From NCBI GenBank assembly GCA_947427385.1, contig CANEHT010000001.1, forward strand, positions 19,572-83,571: 64,000 nucleotides of DNA. Direction: 5' to 3'. The notes beneath the pieces were generated by a model that did no database searches, had not been told where the DNA came from, and was given only the letters and a program-made list of their open reading frames with translations. Below, piece by piece: positions 2,220-60,554 of this stretch. How positions within the stretch are numbered: the first letter of the stretch is position 1; every line of letters begins with the position of its first letter. The translations under genes and the position numbers were made by a program. Source of the DNA: an uncultured Clostridia bacterium (GTDB taxonomy: Bacteria; Bacillota; Clostridia; Lachnospirales; CAMVHY01).

Positions 2220-2343
2220 TTTATCACCTCAACTAAAAGCCACATTAATTATCATATAATTATTATAATACATATAAAAATATATTTAAAGCTAAGATGA
2301 ATAAAATAAATATTTATCTAAATTTAATAGCCTAATGTTTTTA

Positions 2344-4680: not shown

Positions 4681-4853
4681 TTTATCACCTCATTTGCAAA
4701 TTTACTGACATATCATTATTATAATACAAAATATATAAAAAGTAAATATATATTTACCAAAAAACAAAATTAGCAAAGAAAATACTTATTAGAAAGATTT
4801 CGTTTGAGTGACAAAAAAATGAAATTTTTTCAAGCAAAAAACTTTTTTGGGCA

Positions 4854-4887
4854 CAAAAAAAACTTCGCAAACGCGAAGCTTTTTTTC
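4854..4887 (-). terminator. rho-independent terminator downstream of eno
   Basis: Hairpin CTTCGC-aaac-GCGAAG (4863-4878) flanked by an A9 run and a T6 run. On the minus strand the T-run follows the stem. Confidence 0.7.
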
Positions 4888-4893
4888 ACACAA

Positions 4894-7766
<2,873 letters not shown>

Positions 7767-8510
7767 CTAAATCGCCTCTTTAATTATGGAAACGAAATCA
7801 TCTGTCAAACTTGAACCGCCAACCAAACCGCCATCAATATCAGGCATTGCAAATAATTCTTTAGCATTCTTTGAATTAACACTACCACCATATTGAATTT
7901 GAATTTCATCGGCAATATTTGGGTCATAAATTTCTGCAAGGACTTTACGAATCTCAGCACAAATATCTTGTGCTTGCGAAGCGGTCGCAGTTTTTCCCGT
8001 ACCGATAGCCCAAATCGGTTCGTACGCAATTACAAATTTGCTAGTGCCGCTGACATTTATCAATGCATTTTTTATTTGCATCCGAATAAATTCAATTTCG
8101 ACATGATTTTCACGTTGCCGCAACGTTTCACCGACACAAATTATTGGAACAATTCCATGTGCAATAGCTTTTATAACTTTTTTGTTTATCATTTCGTCAG
8201 ATTCATTAAACAATTGACGGCGTTCAGAATGTCCAACGATTACATAATTTATTTGGGAATCAGCAAGCATTTTCGCCGAAATTTCACCAGTATACGCGCC
8301 TGAATCTTCAAAATAAATATTTTGAGCGCCAACTTTAATATTTGTGCCAATGAGGCAATCACGAACTGAAATCAAATCGATTGCTGGGACGCATAAGACA
8401 ATGTCGCAATCATTTGAGTCAATATCATTTTTAATTGTGGAAACAAATTTAGTAGCTTCGTCGGGATTTTTATTCATTTTCCAATTGCCAGCAATAATTG
8501 TTTTACGCAT
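7767..8510 (-). CDS. tpiA: triosephosphate isomerase
   Basis: 247 aa with AGNWKMN, VGHSERR and AYEPIWAIGTGKTA motifs. Confidence 0.96.
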   Translation of the reverse strand: MRKTIIAGNWKMNKNPDEATKFVSTIKNDIDSNDCDIVLCVPAIDLISVRDCLIGTNIKVGAQNIYFEDSGAYTGEISAKMLADSQINYVIVGHSERRQLFNESDEMINKKVIKAIAHGIVPIICVGETLRQRENHVEIEFIRMQIKNALINVSGTSKFVIAYEPIWAIGTGKTATASQAQDICAEIRKVLAEIYDPNIADEIQIQYGGSVNSKNAKELFAMPDIDGGLVGGSSLTDDFVSIIKEAI

Positions 8511-8521
8511 AAAGTTCCTCC

Positions 8522-8716
8522 TTATTGCAAAGTTTCATTAATTTCATGTAGTAGTTCATCACAATTTAAATTATGGACGTCGCAAGCTTGCTCTAAAGTT
8601 TCCGCTTGAGCAGACGGACAACCTAAGCAATGCATTCCGGCATTAGTTAAAACGTCGGCAATTTTTTCATTAGTCTCTAAAATTTCACCGATAGTCATAT
8701 TTTTTGTTATAGCCAT
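8522..8716 (-). CDS. DUF1858-type small redox-disulfide protein (hybrid-cluster-protein-associated family)
   Basis: 64 aa with TIGEIL...[10 protein letters not shown], typical of this family. Confidence 0.7.
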
Positions 8717-8786
8717 AAAAATCTCAGCTCCTTTCCAAAAATATATTATACTCTAATAAAAACTTTTCAGCAAAAAAAGTAAGGAC

Positions 8787-9872
8787 GTGAATGAAATGGG
8801 TGGATCATTTTTCGGACGAATTTTAAAAATCAGTACATTTGGTGAAAGTCATGGCAAAGCAATAGGTGTAATAATTGATGGATGCCCGGCAGGATTAAAA
8901 ATTTATAAACGCGACATTGAAAAATATTTACATCGCCGCGCACCAATTTCAAAATTTTCTACGGCACGCCACGAACCCGATAAATTTGAAATACTTTCGG
9001 GAATCATGGATAACCAAACTTTAGGCACTCCAATTTGTATCATCGTTGAGAATAAAAATTTCAACGCCGATGATTATTCACGAGAAATATTTCGACCAGG
9101 CCACGCCGATTATTGCTACGAAAAAAAATTTGGCTGCCGAGATTATCGCGGCGGTGGTAGAGCTTCAGGACGTGAAACTGTCGCACGAGTAATTGCGGGA
9201 TGTATAGCGCAAAAATTTTTGACACAATTAGAAATTGACGTCCGCGCCTACACTTATTCGATAAATAATATTTGCATAAAAAAAATTGATTGGCACGAAA
9301 ATTTTTTATTCATGCCTGACAAAAATTCTTTCACCAAAGCCGTTAATTTTTTAGAAAACATGCCCGCAGATGATTCTGTCGGCGGAATTGTAGAATGCAC
9401 TGTAAAAAATATTAAGTGTGGCATCGGTGAACCCATCTTCGACAAATTAGACGCACAAATTGCTAAAGCAGTTATGTCCATCGGCGCAGTAAAAGGAATT
9501 GAATTCGGTAGCGGCTTCGGATCAACTTACTTATTCGGCTCACAAAACAATGATGAATATTATTTCGATGACGGCGTCAAAAAAAAATCAAATAATTCCG
9601 GTGGAATCACGGGCGGAATTACAGACGGCGGCGATATAATTTTTCGCGCCGCAATCAAACCAACGCCATCGATTGCAAAATTACAAAATACAATTAACAA
9701 CACAAACGAAAATGTACAAATAAAAACGCGCGGGCGTCATGACAAAATAATTGTACCACGCGCCGTCGTTGTTATAGAATCAATGACGGCAATAGCATTG
9801 ATGGACCAAATTCTTTTGTCATGCACTGCAAAATTTTCTGATGTCAAAAAAAATTATTTTGGACGGCGATAA
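8787..9872 (+). CDS. aroC: chorismate synthase
   Basis: FGESHG, RPGHAD and [10 protein letters not shown] motifs. The track start is GTG 8787; ATG 8796 (MGGSFFG) is an alternative start. Confidence 0.93.
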
Positions 9873-9875
9873 AAA

Positions 9876-10340
9876 TTGAAAAATAAAAATGGCAATGCTT
9901 ATATTTTTGTCATTCTAATTTTGATGATTTCATCATTATTTTTGAACAGCACACTTGACATCATAAAAATCAGCGATGAGAAAAAACATAGCGAAAACAA
10001 TAATTTATATTACATGGCAGAAAGCGGCATTGATAAATTTTCTGACATAGCAAATAAAATTTTGGAATTAAGTATCAAACAAGCCGAAGAAACAAATCAA
10101 TCTGAATCACAAATTTTTAACGAGAACATGCAAAAATTTTTTGGCAATGAAAAAATTTTAATGAAAATCAAAAATGCACCAAGCGATTATGAAATAGAAA
10201 TTAATTTTGAACGTGAAAACGATTTCGATTACAAAATAAAATCTTGCGCAACTGACACTATCAATAAAAATAAAGTTGAAATGATTGGCAAAATAAAAAG
10301 AGACGGTAAAAAATTTTCATCCGTCTCATATGTTTCATGA
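9876..10340 (+). CDS. small membrane-anchored protein with PilX_N-like N-terminus (minor pilin-like?)
   Basis: TTG start right after aroC. The N-terminus NGNAYIFVILILMISSLFL is followed by LYYMAESGIDKF, resembling the PilX N-terminal pattern (hydrophobic anchor ... AEaGle). No other pilus genes are nearby. Confidence 0.35.
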   Translation: MKNKNGNAYIFVILILMISSLFLNSTLDIIKISDEKKHSENNNLYYMAESGIDKFSDIANKILELSIKQAEETNQSESQIFNENMQKFFGNEKILMKIKNAPSDYEIEINFERENDFDYKIKSCATDTINKNKVEMIGKIKRDGKKFSSVSYVS

Positions 10341-10365
10341 AAAATAAAATTTATATACCCATTAA

Positions 10366-11250
10366 CTATTCTTTTCCTTTATCTTCGTTATTTTCTTTAA
10401 ATGGCTCATCTGAATAATCATCTAAATTATTTTCAACTTCATTAACTTCATAATTATCTTGTTCTTTTGCCTTTGATTGTTCCAATTGTTCTTCTTCTAA
10501 TTCAATTGTTTTTTTATCTGCCTTAAATTTGTCTATACAATAAGTGAAAAAAAATATCAGTACTAAACTAACAGCGGTAACAGGCGCTGCTATTTTTACA
10601 ACAACCGCAGCTGCTAACGCTAACAAACCAATTTCCCATGATATCAAAAAACTAATTGCTCCCAAAAAAATTAATAAGCCAATTGTTACTCCTATGCTGC
10701 CTAAAATTCCTAGCGTTTTATTTTTTGCTTTTCTTTCAGATAATTCTTTCCTTAAGATTTCTCTTTCTTTTTCTTTTTCATGAAATTCACATAAATTTTG
10801 AAAAAAGTTTTTTGCTAATTCAGTCTTTAAAGCACGACGTATCAAATTCACATTACTAAAAGAAAATAAATTTTCATCGCAAAGGCGATCAACGATTATT
10901 AAATTTTCATTATCTAAACTATTTTTTCCGCAAACATTAAGAAATTCAGGTAATATAGTAATATCAAATTTAAAATTCTTTGTTATTTGTAGAATAGTTT
11001 TCACACAATTTGCATCTAAAATTTCTTTTTCACAAACTCCAAAAAAGTAACCTAATGAAATTCTATCAAATTCAAGCCCAGCTTTCTTTATTGCCTCTGC
11101 AATATCATTTACTTGTTTAGTTGAGAACAGTTTAAAATTTAAATTCCCAAATAACAAAGTCAATTGAACATTTTTATTTTTATTTATCTCATCCAAAACA
11201 TTTTGAACTTTTTGCTCATGATCTTGATTTGAAATCTGTGTATCTTCCAT
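10366..11250 (-). CDS. orphan hydrophobic-hairpin/coiled-coil protein (294 aa from ATG 11250)
   Basis: Soluble N-domain, then a ~60-aa hydrophobic block LGILGSIGVTIGLLIFLGAISFLISWEIGLLALAAAVVVKIAAPVTAVSLVLIFFFTYCI, then an acidic tail. The track start (TTG 11352) lies inside a terminator stem and upstream of a TGTTATAAT -10 (11300-11308), so I prefer ATG 11250 (MEDTQIS). Confidence 0.6.
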   Translation of the reverse strand: MEDTQISNQDHEQKVQNVLDEINKNKNVQLTLLFGNLNFKLFSTKQVNDIAEAIKKAGLEFDRISLGYFFGVCEKEILDANCVKTILQITKNFKFDITILPEFLNVCGKNSLDNENLIIVDRLCDENLFSFSNVNLIRRALKTELAKNFFQNLCEFHEKEKEREILRKELSERKAKNKTLGILGSIGVTIGLLIFLGAISFLISWEIGLLALAAAVVVKIAAPVTAVSLVLIFFFTYCIDKFKADKKTIELEEEQLEQSKAKEQDNYEVNEVENNLDDYSDEPFKENNEDKGKE

Positions 11251-11336
11251 AAAAATCACAACCCATTTTAAAAAATTTAATCGTAATCGTATATAAAATA
11301 TTATAACAAAAATTGAAACAAAATTTAAAAATTGAG

Positions 11337-11371
11337 TAAAAAAATCAGACAAATTATTTTGTCTGTTTTTT
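11337..11371. terminator. orphan bidirectional terminator hairpin in a divergent intergenic region
   Basis: CAGACAAA-ttat-TTTGTCTG (11346-11365) flanked by A7 and T6 runs. No co-oriented gene ends next to it on either strand. Confidence 0.5.
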
Positions 11372-11513
11372 GTATAAAAAATTTTTAGTAAAAAATACTG
11401 TTAAAAATTTTCATCTATCTCATATGTTTATAAAAAAATCATTCTTATTTTTTTAAATCATCCTTTTCGTTTCAAGCTGTGGAACATTTAATTGTGATTG
11501 TTTATCAATATAA

Positions 11514-12086
11514 TTGCGTACCAAACTTAAAAATTTTTTTATAACATTATTATTTATTTCTTCAGATATTTTCTTTAAATTAGATTTTGCCAAAAATGAA
11601 CTTTCACAAATCAAACAAAATTTTGCAATAGCATTACCAAAAGCAATGCTTTGGATGACTTATAATTTAATTGCAGCCAAAGATTTAGAAAAACAAATTG
11701 CTATATCTCAAAATCAATATTGGTATTATATCATAAATATAATATCAGCAAATTCAAATTGCAATATTTAAACGCCATTACTTCAAAATTGCTAGAAAAT
11801 CTAAAATTAATCGTTGACGATAATGATCCTATTACCAATAAATTAGCAGAATTTAAGATAAATAATAATATGTTCCCTAAAAATTGCGTTATTGCAATTT
11901 CCGACTTATATTGCTTTTCAAAATTCTGTAGAAAGAATATATTTGTTTAATGATGTTGAACAAGTTGTTGGACACACAGTTTATCTAATGGCAATACAAT
12001 ATTTACTTTTTTTGTCGCACCAAGAATTAATAAAAATGGATTGTTTGTATTTAATGAAAACTCTAAAATTAATCAAGAAAACATAG
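11514..12086 (+). pseudogene. frameshifted 5' remnants of an orphan gene (three overlapping ORFs in frames 0/2/0)
   Basis: ORFs 11514-11771, 11720-11950 and 11892-12086 overlap end-to-start in different frames. The frame of the 12118 ORF opens at 12073, overlapping the last fragment. This pattern fits a ~385-aa gene broken by about three indels. Confidence 0.5.
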
Positions 12087-13382: not shown

Positions 13383-16139
13383 CTATAATTTTGTAATATC
13401 AGCGAATAAATGTCGTGCATCAAAAATTTTATTGCGATTACCTATCGTACAAACCATTGTTTTGTCTGAGTTATTTTTGATTTGCTGAGCAATATTTTTT
13501 ATGTCTTCAACTTTTGTAGAAATAATTTCTGTACGTGTTTGCAAAATTTCATCGCGTGAAGTTTCAGTAATATATTGACTAAAAGTAGTTTCGGCACGAT
13601 TTTCTACAGACTTCAATTTATCAAAAACATTTATTGCACTGACGATACATTTTTGAATTTGTTCATCAGAGAATTGAAAATTCAAAGCGTAATCTGCAGC
13701 TGCTAAAAATTTTTTATAAGTAGCTTCGATATTTGAGTCGGCGTATGAATAAAAATATATTGCGTTGTTTTTAAATTTGCAGTTAGAATCATATGCGCCA
13801 CCCATAACTCTTATCTCACGCATCAAATAAATTTTATCCATAAATGTTTCAAACGCATCGCAAAAGCCAGACAATTGAATGTCAAGCGGGATTATCATTG
13901 CATTCGTATTTATTGTTGTCAAATTATGAAATGCCTCATCCGTTTTATAATTTTTAAAGTCATAACTGCAAGATTTTTGTGGAGATGTCGGTAAACTTTG
14001 CATAAGGTTAATAAGTTTTGAATGGATTGCAGCAAAATTTTTTTCATCACAAACTATTTGCAAAAAAGAGTTTTCACGTGTAAAAATAATTTTAAAAACG
14101 TCCAAAAGTTTTTCTATCAAATCATCATATTCATCATCAAAATTTTGATTAAGATTTTTAATGAAATAATAAAAACAAATACCGTCAACAATATCTTTAT
14201 ACTTATATTCATCGCTGTTGTATGAATTAATCTTTTTGACAATATTCTCAATCGGATTTTTTATAAATGAATTTGTCATAAGCGCAAATTTTTGCAGTAA
14301 CAATTTTTTTATCAAACTTTTTGAATTAAAAGTTTTTATACTGAAAATTGCGTGCGTAATTTCAATTATGCTGTCAATATTACTTGGCAGCAACTTAATT
14401 TTTAAGTTCAACATTGGAATAAATTTCGTGTTATCTTTCGAGTAAGTATCGAATTCCATTTTTATATGTCCGATATTATTTATTATCGTTTGCATACTTT
14501 CGTTTGAATTTTCCTGCAATGCAGTGAAAACTAAAGTTTCAGCTAAAATTCCAACATACGGTAATAATTTTTCCGGCACGCAATCAGTTCTAAATGCAAA
14601 CCGCAGATAAATAATTTGTTCTGTATCCATCGGCGTATATAGAATTTTTTCCGTCGGATATTCTTTTGAATCACAAAAACCTAAAAATTTTGTTTCATCA
14701 ACTTTTGCAATCGGAATCAAATTTTCATTATTATCTTTGCTTTCAATAAAATTTTTCATTAGCTTTGCATTTTTCATATCTTCGGCGGATACATTAAATT
14801 GAAATGGATTTTTGCTATCGGGAATTAAACTTGTGAAAACGGCGTGTGTATTAAAAATGATATATTTTCTGATTAAATCTTCGAAATAGCCTTCATGAAT
14901 TTTTTTACGGAGTGAATTCAAAACTTTTATACGTTCAATTTTTGAAAATGGATTACCGTCATAAATCCAATCGGTTAGCATCAAAAGATTTAATACCAAA
15001 CCTTTCGGACGATTTTTATGGAATGATGTTCGCAAATCAAATTCATAATTATTTATGCACGATTCCAGCAACGGTTTATTTAATCCACTTTTATAAATCT
15101 GGCGGAAAATTTGCAAAATCGTATCCTTAAATTTTTCCGTACTACCGTTAAAATTTTCAGAAAGAATTGAATAAACTGGTTGATATATTTCAGTTTCAAG
15201 AAAAGTTTTTACCAGTGGCAAAAACCTTTTCAGTGGTGCGCCAACCATCTTTGCCAAATATGAATTCAAAACATTGAACGCCAAAACTAATTCCAAATTT
15301 AGCGCGGTATCGATAACAAATCCGGCACCGAAATATTTTTTTTGTGCGCCGGAAAAATCATATAGTGCATTTGCAATTAATGGTTCTGAAAAAATTGGTT
15401 GTTTCGGTATGGAAATTTTATTAGGATTTTCACGTGGCGTTAGGTATTCATCAAATAGTTCAAAATAAAAATCCAAATTGTCAATATTTCCATATAAATA
15501 AAGGAAGCAATTTTCTGGCGTGTAAAAATTTTTATGCAAGTCTACAATTTCTTGATGCTGTAATTTTAAAATTTCTTTAGGGACGCCCGATGATTCATAT
15601 TTATAAAATGTGCTCGGAAATAATTTTTTATGGATAAATGAACGAGTTTCACGTACCGGATTTGAAAAAGTTGATTTCATTTCACTATAAACTACGCCGT
15701 TTACGTCTAATCCATTTTCCATTTTTTCATAATGCCATGCTTCATGTAAAAATGTTTCAAAACGTAAAAGTGGATTAAATACGCAATCTAAATAAATTTT
15801 TGTGAGCTTAGCAAATTCACCATCATTCGTACTCGCAATTGGATAAACAGTTTTATCTTTAAACGTTATTGCATTTAAATATGTATAAAGTGAAGAAAAC
15901 GAAATTTCATTAAATGTATCTTTAAGCGGATATTTTTTGGAGCCACATAATGTACAATGTTCAAGAACATGTGGCGCACCTTTATCATCGCTCGGTAAAG
16001 TTTTAAATGCTACCGAAAAAACTTTATTGATATCATCATTTTTGATAAAAATAAGTTGTGCACCACTCGTATGTTCATATAAAAAGCCAGTGGAATCTAT
16101 TGATTCAATTGGTATTTCCTTTTTTAATGTAAAATTCAT
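13383..16139 (-). CDS. M16 family metallopeptidase (PreP/insulinase-like)
   Basis: 918 aa with an HxxEH zinc motif in GAPHVLEHCTLCGSKKYPLKD. The length and layout are typical of M16C presequence-protease-like enzymes. Confidence 0.85.
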   Translation of the reverse strand: MNFTLKKEIPIESIDSTGFLYEHTSGAQLIFIKNDDINKVFSVAFKTLPSDDKGAPHVLEHCTLCGSKKYPLKDTFNEISFSSLYTYLNAITFKDKTVYPIASTNDGEFAKLTKIYLDCVFNPLLRFETFLHEAWHYEKMENGLDVNGVVYSEMKSTFSNPVRETRSFIHKKLFPSTFYKYESSGVPKEILKLQHQEIVDLHKNFYTPENCFLYLYGNIDNLDFYFELFDEYLTPRENPNKISIPKQPIFSEPLIANALYDFSGAQKKYFGAGFVIDTALNLELVLAFNVLNSYLAKMVGAPLKRFLPLVKTFLETEIYQPVYSILSENFNGSTEKFKDTILQIFRQIYKSGLNKPLLESCINNYEFDLRTSFHKNRPKGLVLNLLMLTDWIYDGNPFSKIERIKVLNSLRKKIHEGYFEDLIRKYIIFNTHAVFTSLIPDSKNPFQFNVSAEDMKNAKLMKNFIESKDNNENLIPIAKVDETKFLGFCDSKEYPTEKILYTPMDTEQIIYLRFAFRTDCVPEKLLPYVGILAETLVFTALQENSNESMQTIINNIGHIKMEFDTYSKDNTKFIPMLNLKIKLLPSNIDSIIEITHAIFSIKTFNSKSLIKKLLLQKFALMTNSFIKNPIENIVKKINSYNSDEYKYKDIVDGICFYYFIKNLNQNFDDEYDDLIEKLLDVFKIIFTRENSFLQIVCDEKNFAAIHSKLINLMQSLPTSPQKSCSYDFKNYKTDEAFHNLTTINTNAMIIPLDIQLSGFCDAFETFMDKIYLMREIRVMGGAYDSNCKFKNNAIYFYSYADSNIEATYKKFLAAADYALNFQFSDEQIQKCIVSAINVFDKLKSVENRAETTFSQYITETSRDEILQTRTEIISTKVEDIKNIAQQIKNNSDKTMVCTIGNRNKIFDARHLFADITKL

Positions 16140-16151
16140 TATACCCGCCTC

Positions 16152-17354
16152 CTATTCCGATTTCATTTTTTCCAGATAATAATTTATTTTTTCGGGATTT
16201 TCGGAGAAAAGCAAAGCTTTTTCAAAATTTTCTTTTGCCTGTTCAAAATTTTTACTGTTATATGCTTGTAATCCTTTATCGTAATATATTTTTGCTGCGC
16301 TGGGATAAACTTTTTTTCGAAGTTTTTCTATTTGCTCTGATAATTCTTCAGATTTTACTGGGCTTAATCCGTATAAAATATCAGTAGCTTGAATAATTTT
16401 CTTCTGGCTATATAAATCTTGGGCTTGGGTAAGTAATTTTTGTGTCTCATTCTCTAATAATTTTTGCTGAAATTCTATATTATCTTTCGTTAGCTGCTCA
16501 TTTTCTTTCTTTAGCTTTGGTATCTCTTCATTTATTGTATCATAATTTTCCTGTATAACGTCTAATTCTTTTTGCAATTTCTCTATCGATTTATTCTTTG
16601 ACGAAATTTGTGCTGGGAATACTAACGCATAAATAATTATTATCCCAAAAAATATCCCTGATAAAAATATTACTGCTCGTGAAAAATTAAACATATCTAT
16701 AAATTTTATCTTCGTCGTAAAAAATTTTTTGCTCTGTAAATTTTTCTTGTCAATATATCTCTTGTAATAATTATTCGCTATTATATTTGAATTATCTATC
16801 TGCAATACGCGCTCTATAAGTTTTTGTGCCTTATCTTTTTCTTCTTGATAGATATAACATAATGCTAATAGGTTTAACGCATCGATAAAGTCTGGATTTA
16901 TCTCCAGACTTTTTTTTAACTGTATCACTCCCATATCATCATTATTTTGATTTATGTAATTCAAACCTAAATTATAAAACTTAATTGAATCATTATACTT
17001 ATCAAGAATTTTAGGATTTTGCTGTGCACTCATTAGGTAATCATTAGCAAGATTTATACCTTTAGAAAGAGTTTGACTAATGACCCAATGTTTTAATGCG
17101 TCGCCAATTCTTCCCATACGATAAAAAATAAGGCCCAAAAGATTTCGGGCATTAGTATTATTTTTATACAGGCAGAGACTTTTTTTAAGATAGATAATAG
17201 CGAAAGAGAGTTCATTATTTTTAGTAAAAGTAAGGGCATGATTATAGAAGGTATTTGATAAATCGATAATTTTTTTAGTTAAGATAATATCTTTTTTACA
17301 ATAGGGACAAATTTTGCCATAAGGGATTTCATTATTACATGCAGGGCATTTCAT
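16152..17354 (-). CDS. zinc-ribbon / TPR-repeat / single-TM / coiled-coil protein
   Basis: N-terminal CPACN...CPYCKK, TPR-like repeats, a TM segment (AVIFLSGIFFGIIIIYALVF) and a C-terminal coiled coil. It ends 12 nt before the M16 peptidase start, so the two are probably in one operon. Confidence 0.75.
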   Translation of the reverse strand: MKCPACNNEIPYGKICPYCKKDIILTKKIIDLSNTFYNHALTFTKNNELSFAIIYLKKSLCLYKNNTNARNLLGLIFYRMGRIGDALKHWVISQTLSKGINLANDYLMSAQQNPKILDKYNDSIKFYNLGLNYINQNNDDMGVIQLKKSLEINPDFIDALNLLALCYIYQEEKDKAQKLIERVLQIDNSNIIANNYYKRYIDKKNLQSKKFFTTKIKFIDMFNFSRAVIFLSGIFFGIIIIYALVFPAQISSKNKSIEKLQKELDVIQENYDTINEEIPKLKKENEQLTKDNIEFQQKLLENETQKLLTQAQDLYSQKKIIQATDILYGLSPVKSEELSEQIEKLRKKVYPSAAKIYYDKGLQAYNSKNFEQAKENFEKALLFSENPEKINYYLEKMKSE

Positions 17355-17364: not shown

Positions 17365-17505
17365 TTACTCCTTATTGATATTGATACAAATATAGTTTAA
17401 AAAGTCCATGATATCACGTAATTCGTCAGATTCAACGGAATTTTCGACATCATCTATTCCATTAATAGGTTCATATTTTGACAATTCATATTCAAAATCA
17501 AGCAA
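17365..17505 (-). CDS. possible 46-aa acidic small protein (not in ORF track)
   Basis: My own reading: SD GAAAGGAG (17517-17524), 11-nt spacer, TTG 17505, encoding MLDFEYELSKYEPINGIDDVENSVESDELRDIMDFLNYICININKE. Its last codons (AAG GAG TAA) form the SD for the downstream TPR gene. Confidence 0.3.
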   Translation of the reverse strand: MLDFEYELSKYEPINGIDDVENSVESDELRDIMDFLNYICININKE

Positions 17506-17714
17506 ATTAAGTCAAACTCCTTTCACATCTTCCACAATATTTATTAATTATACAAATAATACCGCGTAATAGCCTATTTCATGTATAAGGACGTAAATTT
17601 TAGTAGAAAAAATGTAAATGTTTTTTGTTGTAAACAGTGATTTCATGAAGTATAATTCCATTTATTGGTAAGCTTCCAATTATTGACAACTCATTATTTT
17701 TGGAGGGATAAAAA

Positions 17715-18500
17715 TTGAGTAAGATAAAAGTATTGCTTGCAGATGATAATAAAGAATTTTGCGACGTAATAGGAGGATATTTAGAAAAACAAGGCGATAT
17801 TGATGTTATAGATTGTGCGTATGACGGAGTAACAGCGTATAAAAAAATACAGGAATTAAAACCAGATGTTGCGATATTAGATGGGATAATGCCGAAATTA
17901 GATGGATTAGGAGTATTAGAGAAATTAGATAAGAAAAATCATCCAACAAGTTCACCAATGTGTATAATTTTATCCGCTATTACTCAAGAGAAAATAACGC
18001 AAAAAGCAATAGAGTTAGGAGCGGAGTATTATATAGCGAAACCATTTGACATAGATATTTTAGCGAAACGAGTTCATCAACTCAATAATAATATATTGCC
18101 GAATAAAAATATTTTATTCAAGAATAATGCGCTGCCATTTGAAAACTATAGTTTAAAGTCAAAAGTAACAGGTATCCTACATAACATAGGAGTACCTGCA
18201 CATATTCGTGGCTATCATTATATGAGGGAAGCAATAATGATGGCGGTAGACGATATAGATATTTTAAACTATATAACGAAAGAATTATATCCGGCAATAG
18301 CAAAAAAATGTAATACGACATCGAGTAGAGTTGAGCGGGCAATAAGGCATGCGATAGAAGTTGCATGGAACAGAGGAAAGGTAGAGGAAATTGATAAATT
18401 TTTTGGCTATACGATAAATAATAATAAGGGGAAGCCAACGAATAGTGAATTTATTGCACTAATAGCAGATAGATTAAGATTAGAATTAAAAGCAAGTTAA
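17715..18500 (+). CDS. spo0A: sporulation master regulator Spo0A (response regulator)
   Basis: Receiver domain (VLLADDN...[14 protein letters not shown]) plus the Spo0A-specific C-terminal HTH ([12 protein letters not shown]...[20 protein letters not shown]...KPTNSEFIA). Starts at TTG with SD GGAGGG. Confidence 0.95.
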
Positions 18501-19680: not shown

Positions 19681-20085
19681 ATGTCACTTTATGAGGTAAC
19701 GCAAATGCTGCAGGATAAAAGTAAGATAAGGAATGATATGGAGGAAGCTGCCAATTTAATAAAGAATATGTTTTATGAGAGGTATCTGCAAAAGATTGAG
19801 GAAGAGGTAGAGTATCAACGATTGCAGGTAAAAAATAATCGGCCGAAAGAAATTGAGCTATTATATGCCTTAAAACCATTTATACCGCATGAGAAATATG
19901 TAATGGTAGATAAGCTAGCAGAATCAATAATGGTAATGAAGACGATAGCGGGCTTACAGGCAGAAATAGATAAATCAATTCATAAAGATGGCGTCTATGA
20001 TATAGATACAAATTGTTTGGCTGATAAAAAAAATAATTTCGCTAATGCTGCATTATTATTTGCGTTATGTTGTAAAGTAAATTGA
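19681..20085 (+). CDS. hypothetical 134-aa protein, tightly coupled to the S8 protease
   Basis: ATG lies 1 nt after the protease stop (TGAgATG). Helical, ends in ...AALLFALCCKVN. No known motif. Confidence 0.6.
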   Translation: MSLYEVTQMLQDKSKIRNDMEEAANLIKNMFYERYLQKIEEEVEYQRLQVKNNRPKEIELLYALKPFIPHEKYVMVDKLAESIMVMKTIAGLQAEIDKSIHKDGVYDIDTNCLADKKNNFANAALLFALCCKVN

Positions 20086-20103
20086 TTATAAAATATTAAC
20101 TAT

Positions 20104-20137
20104 AAAAAAAATCCGACAAATGTCGGATTTTTTTTTT
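20104..20137. terminator. bidirectional rho-independent terminator
   Basis: A8-ATCCGACA-aa-TGTCGGAT-T10 between convergent genes. Confidence 0.8.
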
Positions 20138-20339
20138 AATCTACTTGATATCTGTAGTCATCACTTTTATAATTATTGTTTTCAAGTTTTGGAATTGGTT
20201 CATTGTTTTCAAGTTTGAAAAATTTTTCTTTTATATAAGGAATTGGTAAAATAGCATATTCAAATTTTGGAATTAATTCATGTTGTGTATATGCATGATG
20301 GTTTTTTTTGTGGTGGAACTGACTCGGTTTGTGTCGCAA
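20136..20339 (-). CDS. downstream reading frame of a split low-complexity gene (continues 20278-20574 after a 1-nt shift)
   Basis: It has no SD of its own. Its frame joins the upstream ORF if the A8 tract (20302-20309) were A7. It encodes ...KNHHAYTQHELIPKFEYAILPIPYIKEKFFKLENNEPIPKLENNNYKSDDYRYQVD. Confidence 0.35.
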   Translation of the reverse strand: MRHKPSQFHHKKNHHAYTQHELIPKFEYAILPIPYIKEKFFKLENNEPIPKLENNNYKSDDYRYQVD

Positions 20340-20574
20340 TTTCTTGATGTTCGTGAAAGTTTTTTTGTTGTTTCATTTGTTCCGTTGATTGTTTCATTCG
20401 TTGTTTCTTTGATTGTTCCGCAAATTGTTCCATTAGTTCCATTGTTAGTTCCATTTTTAGTTCAATTGATTGTTTTATTCGTTGTTTCCTTTCTTGTTTC
20501 ATTAGTTGTTCCGTTGATTGTTTCATTGGTTCTATTACAAATCTTTCATATTTATTAGATTCACGTTCAGACAT
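20278..20574 (-). CDS. small K/Q/E/M-rich tandem-repeat protein (98 aa as written)
   Basis: SD GGAGGAATTATT-ATG. The protein (MSERESNKYE...) carries MKQSTEQ repeats, mirrored by DNA repeats (gttccgttgattgtttcatt appears twice). The promoter is TTGACT (20644-49), 17-nt spacer, TATAAT (20621-26). Confidence 0.6.
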   Translation of the reverse strand: MSERESNKYERFVIEPMKQSTEQLMKQERKQRIKQSIELKMELTMELMEQFAEQSKKQRMKQSTEQMKQQKNFHEHQEIATQTESVPPQKKPSCIYTT

Positions 20575-20752
20575 AATAATTCCTCCAAAAAATATATTTA
20601 AAAATTTTTATTGCAATAATATTATAATAAATAAAAATAAATAAGTCAAAAAATATTTAGGTAAAATTCATTTTAGTTAATTTTATAAGAAATTTTGCAA
20701 TGTATTGTTTTATTTTTTTTAATGTTCTAATTCTTTTTTGTTGGTATTATTT

Positions 20753-21415
20753 TTATATTTGTGGATTATGATCTATTTCTATATTAGGATTATATTGATT
20801 AGATTGAGTGATGTTGATTGGTATTAAATTGAGCAAAAGACAAATAGTATTTCTAGTGATTGAATCCTCAATTATTTTGCAAACATTATTTATATGATGT
20901 TCATAATTTTTATTTACAATAAACATAAAGTAAAAATATATGGAAGTTAATTCTTCATGTTTAATAATAGTTTGAAAATAATTGAAAAAAGTTGGGTAAT
21001 TGGGGTTTTCTGATATTTTTGATAATGCATTATAAAATTTAGCAATTTTTTTGCATTGTAAATCATTAAATGACTCATTTTTTTCTGGGTAATTTGCTAC
21101 AAACTCTATTAATTTTTCCTTAAGATTTTCAAAATCGTTTTTTTTAAGATTTTCTATTGCGGTTTCGAAAAGATCTTTTTTTAAATCTTTTGCTTTAGGT
21201 GAAGAAGTATTTTCATAAGTAGCTTTAATTTCGTGATAATTTTTCCAAAAAAAATTAATAGAATCTTTAAACTTTTGTATTGAAATATCAAGGTTAACAG
21301 TATCTCTCAATGAATTAAATTTATCTGCTTCATAGCAGGTTTTCAATTTAAACAAATCTGCATTCAATAAAAAATTAACAAATATTTCATTTTTATCTAT
21401 TCCATTTTCAGACAT
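20753..21415 (-). CDS. orphan helical protein (220 aa), paralog of the N- and C-terminal parts of 21572-22648
   Basis: SD AGAGGAATTTTT-ATG TCT GAA (MSENG). Shares FWKNY/FWEKE and a C-terminal INITQSNQYNP motif with its neighbour. Confidence 0.7.
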   Translation of the reverse strand: MSENGIDKNEIFVNFLLNADLFKLKTCYEADKFNSLRDTVNLDISIQKFKDSINFFWKNYHEIKATYENTSSPKAKDLKKDLFETAIENLKKNDFENLKEKLIEFVANYPEKNESFNDLQCKKIAKFYNALSKISENPNYPTFFNYFQTIIKHEELTSIYFYFMFIVNKNYEHHINNVCKIIEDSITRNTICLLLNLIPINITQSNQYNPNIEIDHNPQI

Positions 21416-21447
21416 AAAAATTCCTCTAAAAAAATATTTTTCATAAC

Positions 21448-21575
21448 ATAATTATTATACATCACAAAAAATATAAAAGTCAAATTTCAAAAATTATTTC
21501 GACAAAATTTATATTATAAAAATAAAAAAGCTGAACTCATATGAATTCAGTTTTTTTATGTGAAAAAAATTTTAT
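21448..21575 (-). repeat. intergenic module copy A: terminator + 0A-box + promoter (~128 bp)
   Basis: Near-identical to 22677-22802, with a 77-bp exact core at 21481-21557. It contains the palindromic hairpin CTGAAcTCATATGAaTTCAG, TTCGACA (21498-21504, which is TGTCGAA on the coding strand), TTGACT (21478-83) and TATAAT (21454-59). Confidence 0.9.
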
Positions 21576-22648
21576 ATTGAATTTTGTTTTTCAACAAAAT
21601 TTTCAATTTGCGGAATTTGTTCATTCATAATTTCTGGGAAATTATTTGAAATAATCGTTAAAAGATTATTAGCATTTTCTTCTGGATTATTTGAGGACAA
21701 TTCTCCAATAATATCAAAAAAGTAATTTATTTCATTATCATTGGGATTGCTTTTAAGGTAATTAAGAAAGTTGATTACATTAATTAGTTGCTCACAAGTA
21801 AAGGCCGTATTTGTTTTTCGTAACATATTTTTAAAAATTCTTATTAATTGATCAATTTTTTCGTCTAATGATATAGGTTGAGGTTGTTGATTTGAAAAAA
21901 TTTGAGTAGTTTGTTGTTGTTGAGCTAAATTTGCTATATATCTTAAGGCTGGTGGTAATTGTTGCTGCAAATATGGTGGTAATTGGTTGTAAAAATTTAT
22001 CGCTTGGTTAATAAATTCATCTGGATTTGGATTAGGTTGAGTTGGATCCATAAATTTTTTGGATTTATTTAATAAATCCATGAATTGTTGTTGCAAATGT
22101 GGTGGTAATTGAGAACCAAAATTATTTGGTTGCGCAAAAATATTTCCAAATTGACTTGGAGTGTAATTCATAAATGGATTAAACATTGAATAATTATTGG
22201 GGGTTGGATTAAATGTTTGTGCAAAAGGAATTGGTTGAGATGTATTTTGATTTGATTGAGTCAAATTTATTGTAACTGAATTTTGATTTGTTTCATTTTG
22301 ATTGTTGATAGGATTAGGATTGTTATTTGAAGAATTTTCTCTTTTGGAATGTTTTATTTCAGTAAGATTCGAAGAAGTGTTTTCGTTATATTTTTTGTCT
22401 AAATTGGGTACTACTTCCTTTTCCCAAAAATTTTTAATGAAATTTTCGATTTCTTCTATTTTTTCTTTTTCTGTTTTACCTTCAGGGAATTTACAAAATC
22501 CAAATAATTTATAGAATTGTGTTGCATTTTCTCCATTAAGATAAAAATCAAATAATTTGCGTATTTTCATAATAGGTAAAAGCTTTTTAAGTTTTACAAA
22601 ATTAGTTTCTTTTTTTTCAGACATTTGTTTTTCAGACACAATAATCAC
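21572..22648 (-). CDS. orphan protein with long Q/N/P-rich low-complexity core (358 aa)
   Basis: The start region is GGAGTGATTATT-GTG TCT GAA AAA CAA ATG TCT GAA AAA. The true start is probably GTG 22639 or ATG 22624. The core includes the internal repeat QLPPHLQQQF / QLPPYLQQQLPPAL. Confidence 0.7.
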   Translation of the reverse strand: MIIVSEKQMSEKKETNFVKLKKLLPIMKIRKLFDFYLNGENATQFYKLFGFCKFPEGKTEKEKIEEIENFIKNFWEKEVVPNLDKKYNENTSSNLTEIKHSKRENSSNNNPNPINNQNETNQNSVTINLTQSNQNTSQPIPFAQTFNPTPNNYSMFNPFMNYTPSQFGNIFAQPNNFGSQLPPHLQQQFMDLLNKSKKFMDPTQPNPNPDEFINQAINFYNQLPPYLQQQLPPALRYIANLAQQQQTTQIFSNQQPQPISLDEKIDQLIRIFKNMLRKTNTAFTCEQLINVINFLNYLKSNPNDNEINYFFDIIGELSSNNPEENANNLLTIISNNFPEIMNEQIPQIENFVEKQNSI

Positions 22649-22676
22649 TCCAAAATTTTTTTGAAATTTGCTACGA

Positions 22677-22802
22677 AATTATTATACAACACAAAAAAAT
22701 AAAAATCAAATTTCAAAAATTATTTCGACAAAATTTATATTATAAAAATAAAAAAGCTGAACTCATATGAATTCAGTTTTTTTTATGTGAAAAAAATTTT
22801 AT
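22677..22802 (-). repeat. intergenic module copy B: terminator + 0A-box + promoter (~126 bp)
   Basis: See copy A. Hairpin at 22757-22776, TTCGACA at 22724-22730, -35 TTGATT at 22704-09, -10 TATAAT at 22681-86. Confidence 0.9.
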
Positions 22803-23293
22803 TAGTTAATAGCTAGCCAAATTAAATAATTTATATCTGAAAGTTTTAACTGTGCGATATAATTTATTTTCTTATTTATATCAGGATTAGCTATTTCATT
22901 TGATAGCCGTAATAAATTTTGTAAATTTGAATTCTCCTCATATATTGCATAATTTATTGCGGCTTTAAAATTTCCCGGTAAATTTATTTTTATTTCTTTA
23001 ACTTCAAATAAATCTGATGAGTAAGTCGAATAAATTTCACGTAAAATATTTTGTCGGTACCGACAATTATTTTTTATTTCCATTAAAATTTTATTCATTG
23101 AGTTAGTTTCTAATTTCGTATAAAATACCTCAGCATTATATTCATCTTGGATAAGATTTTTAATTTTATTCGTATCAAATGGTAGTGGATTTTCTAGCAT
23201 ATTTTTATTAAATGGCTCAAATCGTACGCCATCTAATGAATTAAATTGATTTGGAGGAATTTGCGGCATAAATAAATTTTGCAAGTCTCTCAC
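22802..23293 (-). CDS. ferritin-like-fold protein with apparently degenerate metal ligands (spore-coat-type family?)
   Basis: 163 aa with a P/Q-rich N-terminus followed by IQDEYNAEVFYTKL ... IKNNCRYRQNILREIY ... AINYAIYEENSNLQNLLRL ... IAQLKLSDINYLIWL. From memory this matches the four-helix pattern of clostridial ferritin-like proteins (E..A..FY / DE..H ..IY / E.....Y / DE..H). Here the DE..H positions read NN..Y and LK..D. The start is ambiguous (GTG 23293 or TTG 23284). Confidence 0.4.
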   Translation of the reverse strand: MRDLQNLFMPQIPPNQFNSLDGVRFEPFNKNMLENPLPFDTNKIKNLIQDEYNAEVFYTKLETNSMNKILMEIKNNCRYRQNILREIYSTYSSDLFEVKEIKINLPGNFKAAINYAIYEENSNLQNLLRLSNEIANPDINKKINYIAQLKLSDINYLIWLAIN

Positions 23294-23417
23294 CTCAATT
23301 TAATTTATTCACTCTAAATAAAATAGTTCAATAAAGTTAAATTGCGTTTTATCTACCTATTTCTATATTTATTTCTAAAATCACTACGAATTTTTTAATA
23401 TTTACCTGAAAAATTAT

Positions 23418-23446
23418 TTGGCATGATAATTTTTTTTAACTATAAT
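23418..23446 (+). promoter_or_regulatory. sigmaA-type promoter of groESL
   Basis: TTGGCA (23418-23), 17-nt spacer, TATAAT (23441-46), immediately upstream of CIRCE. Confidence 0.65.
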
Positions 23447-23449
23447 AAT

Positions 23450-23476
23450 TTAGCACTCATCAATGAAGAGTGATAA
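23450..23476 (+). promoter_or_regulatory. CIRCE operator (HrcA binding site)
   Basis: TTAGCACTC-N9-GAGTGATAA compared with the consensus TTAGCACTC-N9-GAGTGCTAA gives one mismatch. It sits in the canonical position before groES. Confidence 0.85.
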
Positions 23477-23502
23477 CAATTTTCAAAAAGGGGGATTTTA
23501 TT

Positions 23503-25439
<1,937 letters not shown>

Positions 25440-30857: not shown

Positions 30858-31436
30858 GTGATTGCTATTACTATTTCAGAATTGAAAAATGTTGTTTGCA
30901 AATGTACGAAATGCGACTTGTCGCAAACGCGAACAAATGTCGTTTTTGGCGTGGGCAATCCAAATGCTGATGTATTATTTGTCGGTGAAGGGCCCGGCCA
31001 AAACGAAGATATGACCGGAATTCCATTTGTCGGACGCGGTGGACAATTATTGGATAAAATGCTTGACGAAATTGGCCTATCGCGTAATAAAAATATTTAC
31101 ATAGCAAATATGGTTAAGTGCCGGCCGCCGAATAATCGTGATCCATTGCCTGAAGAAATTGATTGTTGTATAAATTATTTGCGCTGGCAGTTTAAATTGA
31201 TAAAACCTAAAATAATTGTTTGCGTTGGGCGTATCGCTGCTATACGAATTATAAAAAATGATTTTAAAGTTACACGTGAACATGGTGTTTGGTTTAATAA
31301 AAAAAATATTGAGGTAATGGGAACTTTCCATCCGGCGGCTCTTTTACGAAATCCAAATAATTTACCATATGCTAAAGAAGATTTGCAAAAATTACAGACT
31401 AAAATAAATGAAATTGCTCCACAAGTTTATAATTAA
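30858..31436 (+). CDS. udg: family 4 uracil-DNA glycosylase
   Basis: GEGPGQNEDMTGIPFVGRGGQLLDKML, a Cys cluster (CTKCDL...) and the HPAALLRNP motif. The start codon is uncertain (GTG 30858). Confidence 0.85.
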   Translation: MIAITISELKNVVCKCTKCDLSQTRTNVVFGVGNPNADVLFVGEGPGQNEDMTGIPFVGRGGQLLDKMLDEIGLSRNKNIYIANMVKCRPPNNRDPLPEEIDCCINYLRWQFKLIKPKIIVCVGRIAAIRIIKNDFKVTREHGVWFNKKNIEVMGTFHPAALLRNPNNLPYAKEDLQKLQTKINEIAPQVYN

Positions 31437-31466
31437 AAATCTGTGTTCGCACACAGATTTTTTTTG
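31435..31466 (+). terminator. udg terminator (type AAATCTGTG...CACAGATTT)
   Basis: AAATCTGTGT-tcgc-ACACAGATTT followed by a T8 run. The same element recurs at 33106-33137 and 34349-34383. Confidence 0.8.
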
Positions 31467-31482
31467 TTGAAAATTTTTGATT

Positions 31483-31511
31483 TTGCAATTTGCAAATTAA
31501 AATGTTATAAT
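31483..31511 (+). promoter_or_regulatory. promoter of cassette 1
   Basis: TTGCAA (31483-88), 17-nt spacer, extended -10 TGTTATAAT (31503-11). Confidence 0.5.
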
Positions 31512-31546
31512 ATAAAAAAGGAATGTTTTTTTTAAGAGGAATTTTT

Positions 31547-59000: not shown

Positions 59001-59324
59001 CTAAAACATTCCACCTGTTAAATTATTTAATGATGCGGCAGCAGCTTCATCTACTTGCCTTATCGCTTCATTTACTGCACTAATAATTAAGTCTTGAAGC
59101 ATTTCTAAATCATCAACTACTTCTTTTGATATCTCAATTGATTGAACTGTTTTCTTCCCATCAATAATTAATTTAATAGCGCCACCTCCTGATGTAATTT
59201 CAAATGTTTTTTTAGCTAATTCATCTTGCGTTTTTTTCATATCTTCCTGCATTTTTTTCGCTTGCTTCATTAAACTATTTATATCCATTGAGCCGGGAAA
59301 TCCCGAATTCTTACCAAATGCCAT
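59001..59324 (-). CDS. ybaB: nucleoid-associated protein YbaB/EbfC
   Basis: 107 aa with MQEDMKKTQDEL...GGGAIKLIIDGK...AVNEA, upstream of recR as usual. Confidence 0.92.
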   Translation of the reverse strand: MAFGKNSGFPGSMDINSLMKQAKKMQEDMKKTQDELAKKTFEITSGGGAIKLIIDGKKTVQSIEISKEVVDDLEMLQDLIISAVNEAIRQVDEAAAASLNNLTGGMF

Positions 59325-59408
59325 AATAAATCTCCTCCATCTCTATTTTTCATTTCTATTATAAATAGTTTCAATCATTTAGTCAATGAAATTTTCCTTG
59401 AGTGTTAC

Positions 59409-59459
59409 TTGACTTTGATGTGTATAAATATTACAATAAAATTGTGATTGTTTTATAAT
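59409..59459 (+). promoter_or_regulatory. tandem overlapping promoter candidates of 59491 gene
   Basis: P1 is TTGACT (59409-14), 17-nt spacer, TACAAT (59432-37). P2 is TTACAA (59431-36), 17-nt spacer, TATAAT (59454-59). Both are conserved upstream of the paralog at 60463-60513. Confidence 0.45.
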
Positions 59460-59490
59460 TATTTTTTAAAAATTATAGGAGATGATTATT

Positions 59491-60360
59491 ATGGAAGACC
59501 AACAAAATCCAAAAGTTGAAACAGTGGAAAATGCTGAGCAAGTACAAAATGAAAATCAAGCTCAAACTTTAAATAATGATGAACAAAGTGAAGAAGACAT
59601 AGAAAGAAGAAAAAAATATGAGGAGCAACAAATAGCGCGAATTAATTTGATTTTTGGTAAGCCAACAGATCTTCAAAAATTATATGAAGAATATGCAAAA
59701 GAGTTTCAAGTTATAGCTCAAAAACGTGCAGAAGTAGAAAGTTTAAAAAAAGAAACAAATGAAAAAAACGATAATGATAAACAAGAGAATAATAATAATA
59801 ATGCTAATGAACCCCAAGGAAGCGAGTCAAAAACATTGCAACAAGATGAAGAAAAAGAATTTGCTGGACGTTGGGGACTTAATCCTGAAGAGTTATCAGG
59901 TAAGATTGAAGTCTTACAAGTAGGATGTGTAGCAACTGTTGTTCCGCAACATCTTACTTTTAAGGAAAAAGAAGAGCGTAATAATGTTTTAAAAAAAGCA
60001 ATGGAAATTAATCTTTATAAAAAATTACCGGATTTTGCAAAATTTTTGCAAGTTAGAGGAATAAATGCTAAGTTAGAACAATTTGGAGATGATATGGCAA
60101 AATTTGATCCAGGATGTGATGCTAAAGCTGTATCTTATTTTTTAGATGAATTTTGTGAATTGGAAAAACAAAAAGAAGAAATAAAAGCTCAAAAGGAAAA
60201 AGAAGAAAGAGAAAAAAAAGAAAAGGAAAGTATAATGGATAAAGCAAAAGATGCTAAAAAAGAGGCAGATGAGCAAAGTGAAAATAATGAACCAGAAAGT
60301 GAGCAACCTAATAGTGAGCATGACGAAACAGGTAATAGTGTTCCTGATTTAACAGATTAA
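59491..60360 (+). CDS. orphan acidic/K-E-rich protein (289 aa), paralog of 60555-61214
   Basis: SD AGGAG-atgattatt-ATG 59491 (MEDQQNPK). Its core VEVLQVGCVATVVPQHLTFKEKEERNNVLKKAMEINLY aligns with the neighbour. No TM segment or signal peptide. Confidence 0.72.
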   Translation: MEDQQNPKVETVENAEQVQNENQAQTLNNDEQSEEDIERRKKYEEQQIARINLIFGKPTDLQKLYEEYAKEFQVIAQKRAEVESLKKETNEKNDNDKQENNNNNANEPQGSESKTLQQDEEKEFAGRWGLNPEELSGKIEVLQVGCVATVVPQHLTFKEKEERNNVLKKAMEINLYKKLPDFAKFLQVRGINAKLEQFGDDMAKFDPGCDAKAVSYFLDEFCELEKQKEEIKAQKEKEEREKKEKESIMDKAKDAKKEADEQSENNEPESEQPNSEHDETGNSVPDLTD

Positions 60361-60462
60361 ATAAAGAAAGTGATATTTAACGAAATTTAATCTCTCATAA
60401 ATTTTTTTGTTTGTTATAACAATTTTGTTTATTTATTCAATTAATTTTTTTTTGAGTGATAC

Positions 60463-60513
60463 TTGATTTTGACATAAATAAATATTACAATAACGTTACA
60501 AGCATTTTATAAA
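60463..60513 (+). promoter_or_regulatory. tandem overlapping promoter candidates of the 60.5 kb paralog
   Basis: TTGATT (60463-68), 17-nt spacer, TACAAT (60486-91). Also TTACAA (60485-90), 17-nt spacer, TATAAA (60508-13). Confidence 0.4.
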
Positions 60514-60554
60514 CACTTATTTTATGAGGGAGGTTGATTATTATGGAAAAATAA

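Follow-up and report, generated by a model that had tools for sequence, protein, structure and literature searches.

A duplicated terminator-promoter junction carrying a probably dispensable TGTCGAA motif in a strain-variable tandem gene array of an uncultured mouse-gut Clostridia bacterium

A 64 kb stretch of DNA from an uncultured mouse-gut Clostridia bacterium (hereafter, the window) contains an intergenic module that occurs twice between genes arranged head to tail on the minus strand. Each copy carries TGTCGAA, a perfect core of the box bound by Spo0A, upstream of a predicted promoter. We favor, with a probability of about 65%, the explanation that the module is the terminator-promoter junction of a strain-variable tandem gene array, that its copies have been homogenized by gene conversion, and that TGTCGAA is dispensable. 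The locus is ordinary apart from one mildly notable feature, namely that conservation is higher in the intergenic DNA than in the genes on either side of it.

The two copies, located at 21448..21575 (copy A) and 22677..22802 (copy B), are the only ones in the window. In a pairwise alignment, 123 of the 129 positions were identical, in agreement with a preliminary description that had called them near-identical; the exact core that it had reported is also present, but measures 78 bp (21480-21557 = 22706-22783) rather than 77 bp. Because one 31-mer and one 40-mer of this core each occurred exactly twice in the window and never in shuffled sequences, the repeat lies far beyond chance. On the minus strand, both copies contain, in the order and at the positions previously described, a stop codon, a terminator, TGTCGAA, a -35 element and TATAAT. 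Copy A joins the terminator of a 350-aa gene to the promoter of a 220-aa gene. The stop codon of the upstream gene (21572-21574) is followed by a predicted intrinsic terminator (21518..21557, recognized by a terminator scan and by folding), composed of an A-run, the hairpin CTGAATTCATATGAGTTCAG (21550-21531) and the U-run CTTTTTTATTTTT (21530-21518). TGTCGAA (21504-21498) comes next, then a putative sigma-A-type promoter (21454..21483), with TTGACT at 21483-21478, an 18-nt spacer and TATAAT at 21459-21454, and finally a candidate ribosome-binding site (RBS), AGAGGAA (21427-21421), ahead of an ATG at 21415. Copy B similarly joins the terminator of a 155-aa gene to the promoter of the 350-aa gene: its stop codon (22802-22804) precedes a predicted terminator (22744..22783) made of an A-run, a hairpin (22776-22757) and CTTTTTTATTTTT, then TGTCGAA (22730-22724), a putative sigma-A-type promoter (22681..22709; TTGATT at 22709-22704, a 17-nt spacer and TATAAT at 22686-22681) and GGAG (22651-22648), with the start codon being either a GTG at 22639 or an ATG at 22624. 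The gap between TGTCGAA and the -35 element is 14 nt in each copy. Relative to a transcription start deduced from the -10 element, the box would lie at about -57 to -51 in copy A and -56 to -50 in copy B. A leader of about 35 nt leads to the RBS and the start codon, which lies 89 nt (copy A) or 91 or 106 nt (copy B) from the box.

A third, diverged junction (20575..20752, minus strand) follows the 220-aa gene. It retains the promoter half only (TTGACT at 20649-20644, 17 nt, TATAAT at 20626-20621, with GGAGGAATTATTATGTCTGAA), has no hairpin, and shows TACCTAA at the position of the box.

The hairpin is stable (RNA fold of -13.6 kcal/mol, z = -5.9), begins 21 nt (copy A) or 25 nt (copy B) after the stop codon and is directly followed by the U-run, as would be expected of an intrinsic terminator. 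The promoter matches the consensus at 11 of 12 positions in copy A and at 10 of 12 in copy B, with hexamers separated by 17-18 nt and a distance of approximately 26-29 nt between the -10 element and the RBS. The stop codon, intrinsic terminator and sigma-A-type promoter of the preliminary description were thus confirmed, and both terminator and promoter were conserved in the homologous modules that we found; judging from their sequence, they probably work in vivo. Other sigma factors were considered and rejected, as the -35 and -10 elements do not fit the consensus of sigma-H, -E, -F, -G or -K, whereas the fit to sigma-A is 10-11 out of 12. A possible UP element was also discarded: the stretch from -59 to -38 is AT-rich, yet mismatches the UP consensus. 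No Rfam match was obtained for the module or its leader in 20000-23600, even at E ≤ 1, with the exception of weak matches on a terminator at 20.1 kb.

To place the module among its relatives, homologous loci were recovered by exact-protein look-ups and by one genome scan with the 155-aa protein as query. The arrangement of the window was found again in ENA and Logan assemblies (L001, L019, L020 and L023). Other loci came from the metagenome-assembled genome (MAG) GCA_948632375.1 (L008), from the mouse-gut MAG 'uncultured Eubacteriales bacterium MGBC163006' (L018) and from many Logan contigs, and included a relative with 68% identity in its first protein (L022) as well as a more distant one (L053). 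In total, ten distinct module types were obtained from independent assemblies (an ENA metagenome assembly, two NCBI MAGs and many Logan runs), nine of which were aligned. Conservation extends over a stretch that starts at the stop codon and ends with the first codons, ATGTCTGAA. Within it, invariant columns accounted for 6/6 positions of the -10 element, 5/6 of the -35 element (only C/T at position 5), 14/20 of the hairpin and 10/13 of the U-run, compared with 6/14 in the 14-nt gap, 1/13 in the spacer upstream of the box, and 1/7 in the box itself, which is among the least conserved segments. Both promoter elements likewise occurred in L028_1, in L053 and at the window's third junction. What could be recognized in L053 was limited to the promoter, the leader and ATGTCTGAAAAT (with an MSEN start); the terminator was different, and nothing resembling the box was seen at this junction.

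TGTCGAA was observed in six module types (window A, window B, L008_1, L008_4, L018_1 and L028_1), which do not count as independent since they are near-identical over the whole surrounding segment. The remaining boxes were TGTTGAA in L008_2, TATTAAA in L008_3 (ahead of an intact 449-aa gene), TGTTATT in L018_2 (ahead of a 211-aa gene) and TGTAGTA in L022_1. Bases G2, C4 and G5 are those contacted by Spo0A, and single changes reduce affinity about tenfold (PMC3485338). These bases are altered in four modules whose promoter is intact, three of which precede an apparently intact gene or gene start. By comparison, hairpin pairing is kept: in L008_3, for example, C8>T is accompanied by G15>A, and six of the seven hairpin variants folded at -11.4 to -16.9 kcal/mol, with only that of L018_2 being degenerate (-2.8 kcal/mol). 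Because the variants alter contact bases of the box while hairpin pairing is maintained, selection is visible on the terminator and the promoter, but not on the box.

The main alternative is that TGTCGAA is a working operator, at which phosphorylated Spo0A, bound at about -57 to -50, would turn strong vegetative promoters down when sporulation sets in, by hindering upstream contacts of RNA polymerase, or up. Expression of the box-bearing cassettes (as we call the genes that follow a junction) would then be tied to the state of Spo0A. We consider this doubtful, and give a physiologically meaningful role of the box in Spo0A control about one chance in four. The preliminary description had identified TGTCGAA as a Spo0A box; the core is indeed perfect and conforms to TGNCGAA in both copies, but a regulatory role is not supported by its chance-level frequency and its poor conservation in homologous modules. 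On the two strands of the window, TGTCGAA was observed 13 times, compared with 9.2 ± 2.9 expected from dinucleotide shuffles, and 13 out of 100 shuffles reached 13. In the approximately 9.2 kb of intergenic DNA, where a first-order Markov estimate predicts about 0.96 copies on both strands, there were three: two in the modules and one upstream of spo0A. Since the two module copies count as one event, as the earlier caveat on their lack of independence had rightly held, this amounts to two independent events against about one expected, and the count carries no statistical weight. The motif is thus neither enriched nor better placed than chance.

Several other features of the box also argue against an operator. 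It is single, with no partner at the 3-bp spacing of footprinted tandem sites: the 7-mers located 10 nt on either side (ATTTTTG downstream and ATATAAA upstream) match at no more than 2 of 7 positions. The promoter is already near consensus, with a spacer of 17-18 nt, and should need no activator, unlike Spo0A-activated promoters of the spoIIG type. Contact bases are lost in L008_3, L018_2, L022_1 and L008_2, and the box is absent from L053 and from the third junction, while the -35 and -10 elements are kept throughout; moreover, the columns of the box are no better conserved than the flanking spacer. Finally, the proximity of spo0A, which had been reported at about 3 kb and lies 2.9 kb away in the window, is not conserved in relatives. 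In L018, L021 and L034-L039, the gene that follows the array is argS, and because array order differs in this way between related strains, spo0A is not a conserved neighbor.

Published Spo0A sites provide both parallels and differences. In Clostridioides difficile, perfect boxes located 67-82 nt upstream of the start codons of spo0A, sigH, lplA and ssuA are bound in vitro, and binding to perfect boxes was also obtained at genes unrelated to sporulation (PMC3485338). The module resembles these promoters in its 7-bp core TGTCGAA, in its similar distance to the start codon (about 89-106 nt) and in its origin from a clostridial-type bacterium whose Spo0A has a canonical DNA-binding domain. It differs from them in that binding was demonstrated in C. 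difficile, whereas here the box is known from sequence alone. Furthermore, in the module the box travels as a passenger of a repeated junction, has been lost from homologous junctions, and precedes genes with no known link to sporulation. A second parallel is found in phages phi29 and Nf, whose strong sigma-A early promoters are repressed by Spo0A bound to boxes that border the core promoter on its upstream side, and in which TGTtGAA boxes are functional when in tandem (PMC2731898). As in the module, a strong sigma-A promoter is combined with a 0A box at its upstream edge, and the imperfect variant TGTtGAA is the one present in L008_2 and in another array of the window. The phage boxes, however, stand in tandem 3 bp apart, overlap the core promoter and exclude RNA polymerase, whereas the module has one box, 14 nt upstream of the -35 element.

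A number of points weigh against our interpretation. The organism encodes a canonical Spo0A: its DNA-binding domain aligned with structures 1LQ1 and 1FC3, and its recognition helix differs from that of B. subtilis by one conservative change. Apart from the modules, the intergenic DNA of the window has a perfect box only upstream of spo0A itself. A perfect TGTCGAA, here extended to TTTGTCGAAA, is rare in DNA so rich in A and T, and it is present in 6 of the 10 module types; each of the four close strain lineages has it in the junction that follows the 155-aa gene. Binding in vitro is moreover well predicted by a perfect box in C. difficile (PMC3485338). The synonymous divergence (dS) of the adjacent gene is only 0.06-0.07 among the close strains, and conservation among them is consequently uninformative in either direction. 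In addition, the terminator and promoter functions assigned to the module in this uncultured organism are themselves only predictions.

Taken together, we infer that the box is at most an accessory input for Spo0A and is dispensable for module function, and a regulatory role of TGTCGAA is unsupported by the comparative evidence. In vitro, binding of Spo0A to the module box has a better than even chance. A perfect 0A box in a duplicated module thus represents one event, at chance level, which is not preserved where the promoter is, and it should not be assigned to a Spo0A regulon without a binding test. The variants TGTCGAA, TGTTGAA, TATTAAA, TGTTATT and TGTAGTA provide a natural mutant series in homologous promoters.

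The likeness between modules was not uniform along their length. In its terminator half, copy A shares 97% identity with copy B and 95% with L008_1 and L018_1, both of them junctions that follow the 155-aa gene, but only 79% with its positional counterpart, L008_3. The middle segment, which bears the box, shows 100% identity when the window copies are compared with each other and no more than 91% to any other module; it contains ATAAT, specific to the window, where all close relatives have GTAAT, GTGAA or GCAAA. Leaders followed yet another pattern, with that of copy A being closest to L008_1 (86%) and that of copy B to L008_2 (93%), while the leaders of copies A and B are 60% alike. As a whole, copy A is 91.6% identical to L008_1. 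This mosaic of segments is the signature of gene conversion or unequal exchange between junctions, and the 78-bp exact core would result from recent gene conversion between the window copies; the direction and mechanism of conversion are inferred. Modules differ by about 5-9% between strains, compared with a synonymous divergence of 0.15-0.37 in the cassettes. The locus therefore offers a documented case, in an uncultured mouse-gut Clostridia lineage, in which intergenic regulatory DNA is homogenized while the genes that it serves diverge at near-neutral rates.

The content of the array varied markedly between strains. From mfd to the 155-aa gene, the backbone of the window shares about 95% DNA identity with L008, L018 and L028, the 155-aa gene itself being about 95% identical in related strains, and homology breaks off inside the first module. 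Beyond this point, the window contains cassettes of 350, 220 and 98 aa; L008, cassettes of 451, 206, 449 and 58+122 aa; L018, L021 and L034-L039, cassettes of 195 and 211 aa followed by a terminator standing alone and by argS in convergent orientation; and L045, a cassette of 441 aa and more. Two of the L008 cassettes are decayed. The 206-aa open reading frame (ORF; L008 7056-7676) is a truncated counterpart of the 350-aa gene, 57-62% identical to it, with ACG at the start position, and the counterpart of the 220-aa gene (L008 9735-10369) is split into ORFs of 58 and 122 aa. The junction promoters of both were nonetheless intact.

Cassette proteins proved to be distant paralogs. In an all-versus-all BLASTP comparison, the 451- and 449-aa proteins of L008 matched the 220-aa protein (1e-6 and 3e-7), the 122-aa fragment (4e-6 and 3e-9) and the C-terminus of the 350-aa protein (6e-3 and 1e-3), and the 451-aa protein matched the 195-aa protein (1e-3). 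Their common domain spans about 110 aa (L..F..NYP.EN.S.NDL.CEKI ... YF..IINEN...EIN.VC..IDN), and three copies of it were found in P0020, a relative of 654 aa. The 98- and 211-aa genes are tied to the family by the module only, as well as by the MSE start in the case of the 98-aa gene. The ratio of non-synonymous to synonymous divergence (dN/dS) was 0.38-0.82 for cassette counterparts between the window and L008 and 1.07 for the 451/449-aa pair, compared with 0.13 for groEL. No match was found for the array proteins in Pfam, NCBIfam, PHROGs or PADLOC, and searches of the cassette proteins against Pfam and NCBIfam, together with two word-indexed searches and one exhaustive HMMER search, returned this lineage only. 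For the 220-aa protein, two relatives were obtained from a word-indexed search of 5.8 billion clusters and three from the exhaustive HMMER search of 1.84 billion representatives. By sequence, the cassette genes are therefore diverged members of one lineage-restricted family without a database match. A weak match to DUF5752 (E 0.0028), which lay below the cut-off, was discarded as an indication of cassette function. The AlphaFold2 (AF2) model of the 220-aa protein is all-helical, but its confidence score (predicted local distance difference test, pLDDT) of 36.7 makes it unusable.

These observations can be arranged into a plausible sequence of events. The 5' half of the module would be the Rho-independent terminator of the upstream gene, consisting of an A-run, an 8-bp hairpin and a U-run, and the 3' half a near-consensus sigma-A promoter with a leader of about 35 nt and an RBS, serving a downstream gene that usually starts with Met-Ser-Glu. 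The array would have been born by tandem duplication of whole promoter-gene-terminator units, after which the coding parts may have diverged rapidly, with some copies decaying. The likeness of the junctions would have been kept by selection on the terminator and promoter, together with gene conversion or other recombination among the junctions. Cassettes would also be added or removed between strains by recombination acting on the direct repeats of about 100 bp, and TGTCGAA would be the mark of one module subtype, copied along with the module.

Tandem paralogs with duplicated upstream regions were also observed elsewhere in the window. In a second array (31408-35250, plus strand), a junction is repeated three times (31408-31556, 33079-33220 and 34325-34462), each with a putative terminator (A-run, hairpin and U-run), a sigma-A-type promoter with an extended -10 element, and an RBS. 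The first two genes (31523-32998 and 33210-34328) are 45% identical, whereas the third copy has no long ORF; in the first two junction copies, TGTTGAA stands right after the U-run. Another two tandem paralogs (59320-61214, plus strand; 292 and 219 aa, 30% identity, E 2e-10) form a third set, and their upstream regions share 77% identity and include TTGACT/TTGATT ... TACAAT. The presence of these two further sets indicates that the architecture is routine in this genome, and the duplicated junctions are a normal by-product of tandem duplication of one-gene units. The second array, like the first, has a repeated terminator, sigma-A promoter and RBS ahead of each paralog. It differs in that its genes are 45% identical and its junctions 71-90%, whereas the first array combines junctions that are 95% identical with genes barely recognizable as paralogs; only this contrast makes the first array unusual. 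An upstream motif common to both arrays, TTTTGTYGAAA...TTTTTGA, was dismissed as a coincidence: a relaxed search gave 6 occurrences, compared with 3.4 expected, and exact matches were confined to the two module copies. In L018, a 79-nt intergenic repeat (14536-14614 and 17599-17677, 85% identical) was observed around a 962-aa gene without a Pfam match, which suggests that repeated junctions are common across the lineage.

An alternative use for the repeat would be as a dedicated recombination or portability element, by which cassettes are swapped, duplicated or deleted and whose promoter and terminator make an incoming cassette independent of its context. Consistent with this, cassette content differs between strains whose backbone is 95% identical, breakpoints fall inside modules, the module segments are mosaic, junctions are better conserved than synonymous sites, and the conserved stretch extends exactly from stop codon to first codons. 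On the other hand, neither searches with Pfam, NCBIfam and PHROGs nor inspection of the neighboring genes revealed a recombinase, integrase or transposase within the array or beside it. The 20-nt palindrome, with the U-run that follows it, is a terminator hairpin rather than an attC-like site, and the same architecture recurs in the two other arrays of the window, where the paralogs have plainly diverged. Since homologous recombination of the ordinary kind, acting on direct repeats of about 100 bp, accounts for all of the observations, we find a dedicated element improbable. Likewise, the module did not resemble an integron-like array, a miniature inverted-repeat transposable element (MITE) or a repetitive extragenic palindrome (REP), with no recombinase or transposase among its neighbors, two copies in 64 kb, and no match in IMG/VR or JGI. 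A mobile or phage origin was rejected on similar grounds, as the array proteins had no PHROG or PADLOC match and the module pattern was absent from IMG/VR and from JGI metagenomes.

A repeat of this kind could also be an assembly artefact, produced by a collapsed or chimeric repeat, and short-read contigs do often end inside the module. Logan contigs from different samples break there, either at their start (L002-L005 and L007) or at their end (L028-L031), which indicates that the repeat fragments assemblies of this lineage. However, the two-copy arrangement, with its different flanking genes, was read through in several independent assemblies (L001/L019/L023 and L020), and related genomes hold two to four diverged copies, each in its own context. 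An artefact is thus very improbable indeed.

Among known systems, the array recalls the vlp/vsa-type families of Mycoplasma, tandem multigene families in which gene conversion maintains the likeness of conserved 5' expression regions. In both cases, a conserved promoter, leader and first codons precede fast-diverging coding regions, and copy number and content vary between strains. Unlike these families, the array has no signal peptide or lipoprotein box and shows no sign of phase variation (no invertible element and no homopolymer switch), and each copy has its own predicted terminator and an apparently constitutive promoter. A bolder proposal would treat the array as a set of hypervariable expression slots, in which a selected junction serves as a portable exchange site for a private, rapidly diversifying protein family and the TGTCGAA subtype places a subset under Spo0A control, so that the choice of cassette would depend on the sporulation state of a gut spore former. 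We regard this as a long shot.

The junctions lie in a region of 23-26% G+C that comprises four minus-strand genes of 155, 350, 220 and 98 aa. The first of these (22802..23269), which is conserved, has a possible alternative start at 23293, and its own stop codon opens copy B. It adjoins groES, which together with groEL (23470-25439) is located upstream of the array in divergent orientation. An AF2 model of its product showed a ferritin-like four-helix bundle (pLDDT 81), and the nearest folds in the PDB were those of ferritin-like proteins, among them a putative spore coat protein of the CotF type. With template modeling (TM) scores of 0.6-0.68 and weak E-values, this likeness is only a hint. 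The 350-aa gene (21572..22624, or 21572..22639 from the GTG; 350-355 aa) has a centre rich in Q, N and P, with the family domain in its C-terminal part. This low-complexity centre contains an internal 126-nt duplication (21957-22006 and 22083-22132, encoding QLPPYLQQQ and QLPPHLQQQ). The 220-aa gene (20753..21415), predicted to be all-helical, is the founding member of the family domain, and the 98-aa gene (20278..20574) begins with MSE, as do other cassettes. A putative bidirectional terminator (20101..20138), an inverted repeat with 18-nt arms that are 94% complementary, closes the array.

Downstream, in convergent orientation, are a 134-aa gene, a subtilase gene and spo0A (17715..18500, plus strand; Pfam Spo0A_C, 4.9e-46). 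Between spo0A and a TPR gene (16152-17354), TGACGAA and TGTCGAA are found 21 nt apart on the minus strand (17422-17449), about 270-290 nt upstream of the spo0A start, and this pair is a candidate site of Spo0A autoregulation. Farther away, GC skew changes sign near 12 kb (cumulative minimum; 1-12000 versus 12000-44000), at the same place as a shift in the predominant gene orientation, and no dnaA was seen near this switch. Within the 98-aa gene, the interior (20353-20546, minus strand) is composed of about 11 tandem 12-nt units that encode a 4-residue repeat of the MKQS/TEQL type, which is possibly a hot spot for length variation.

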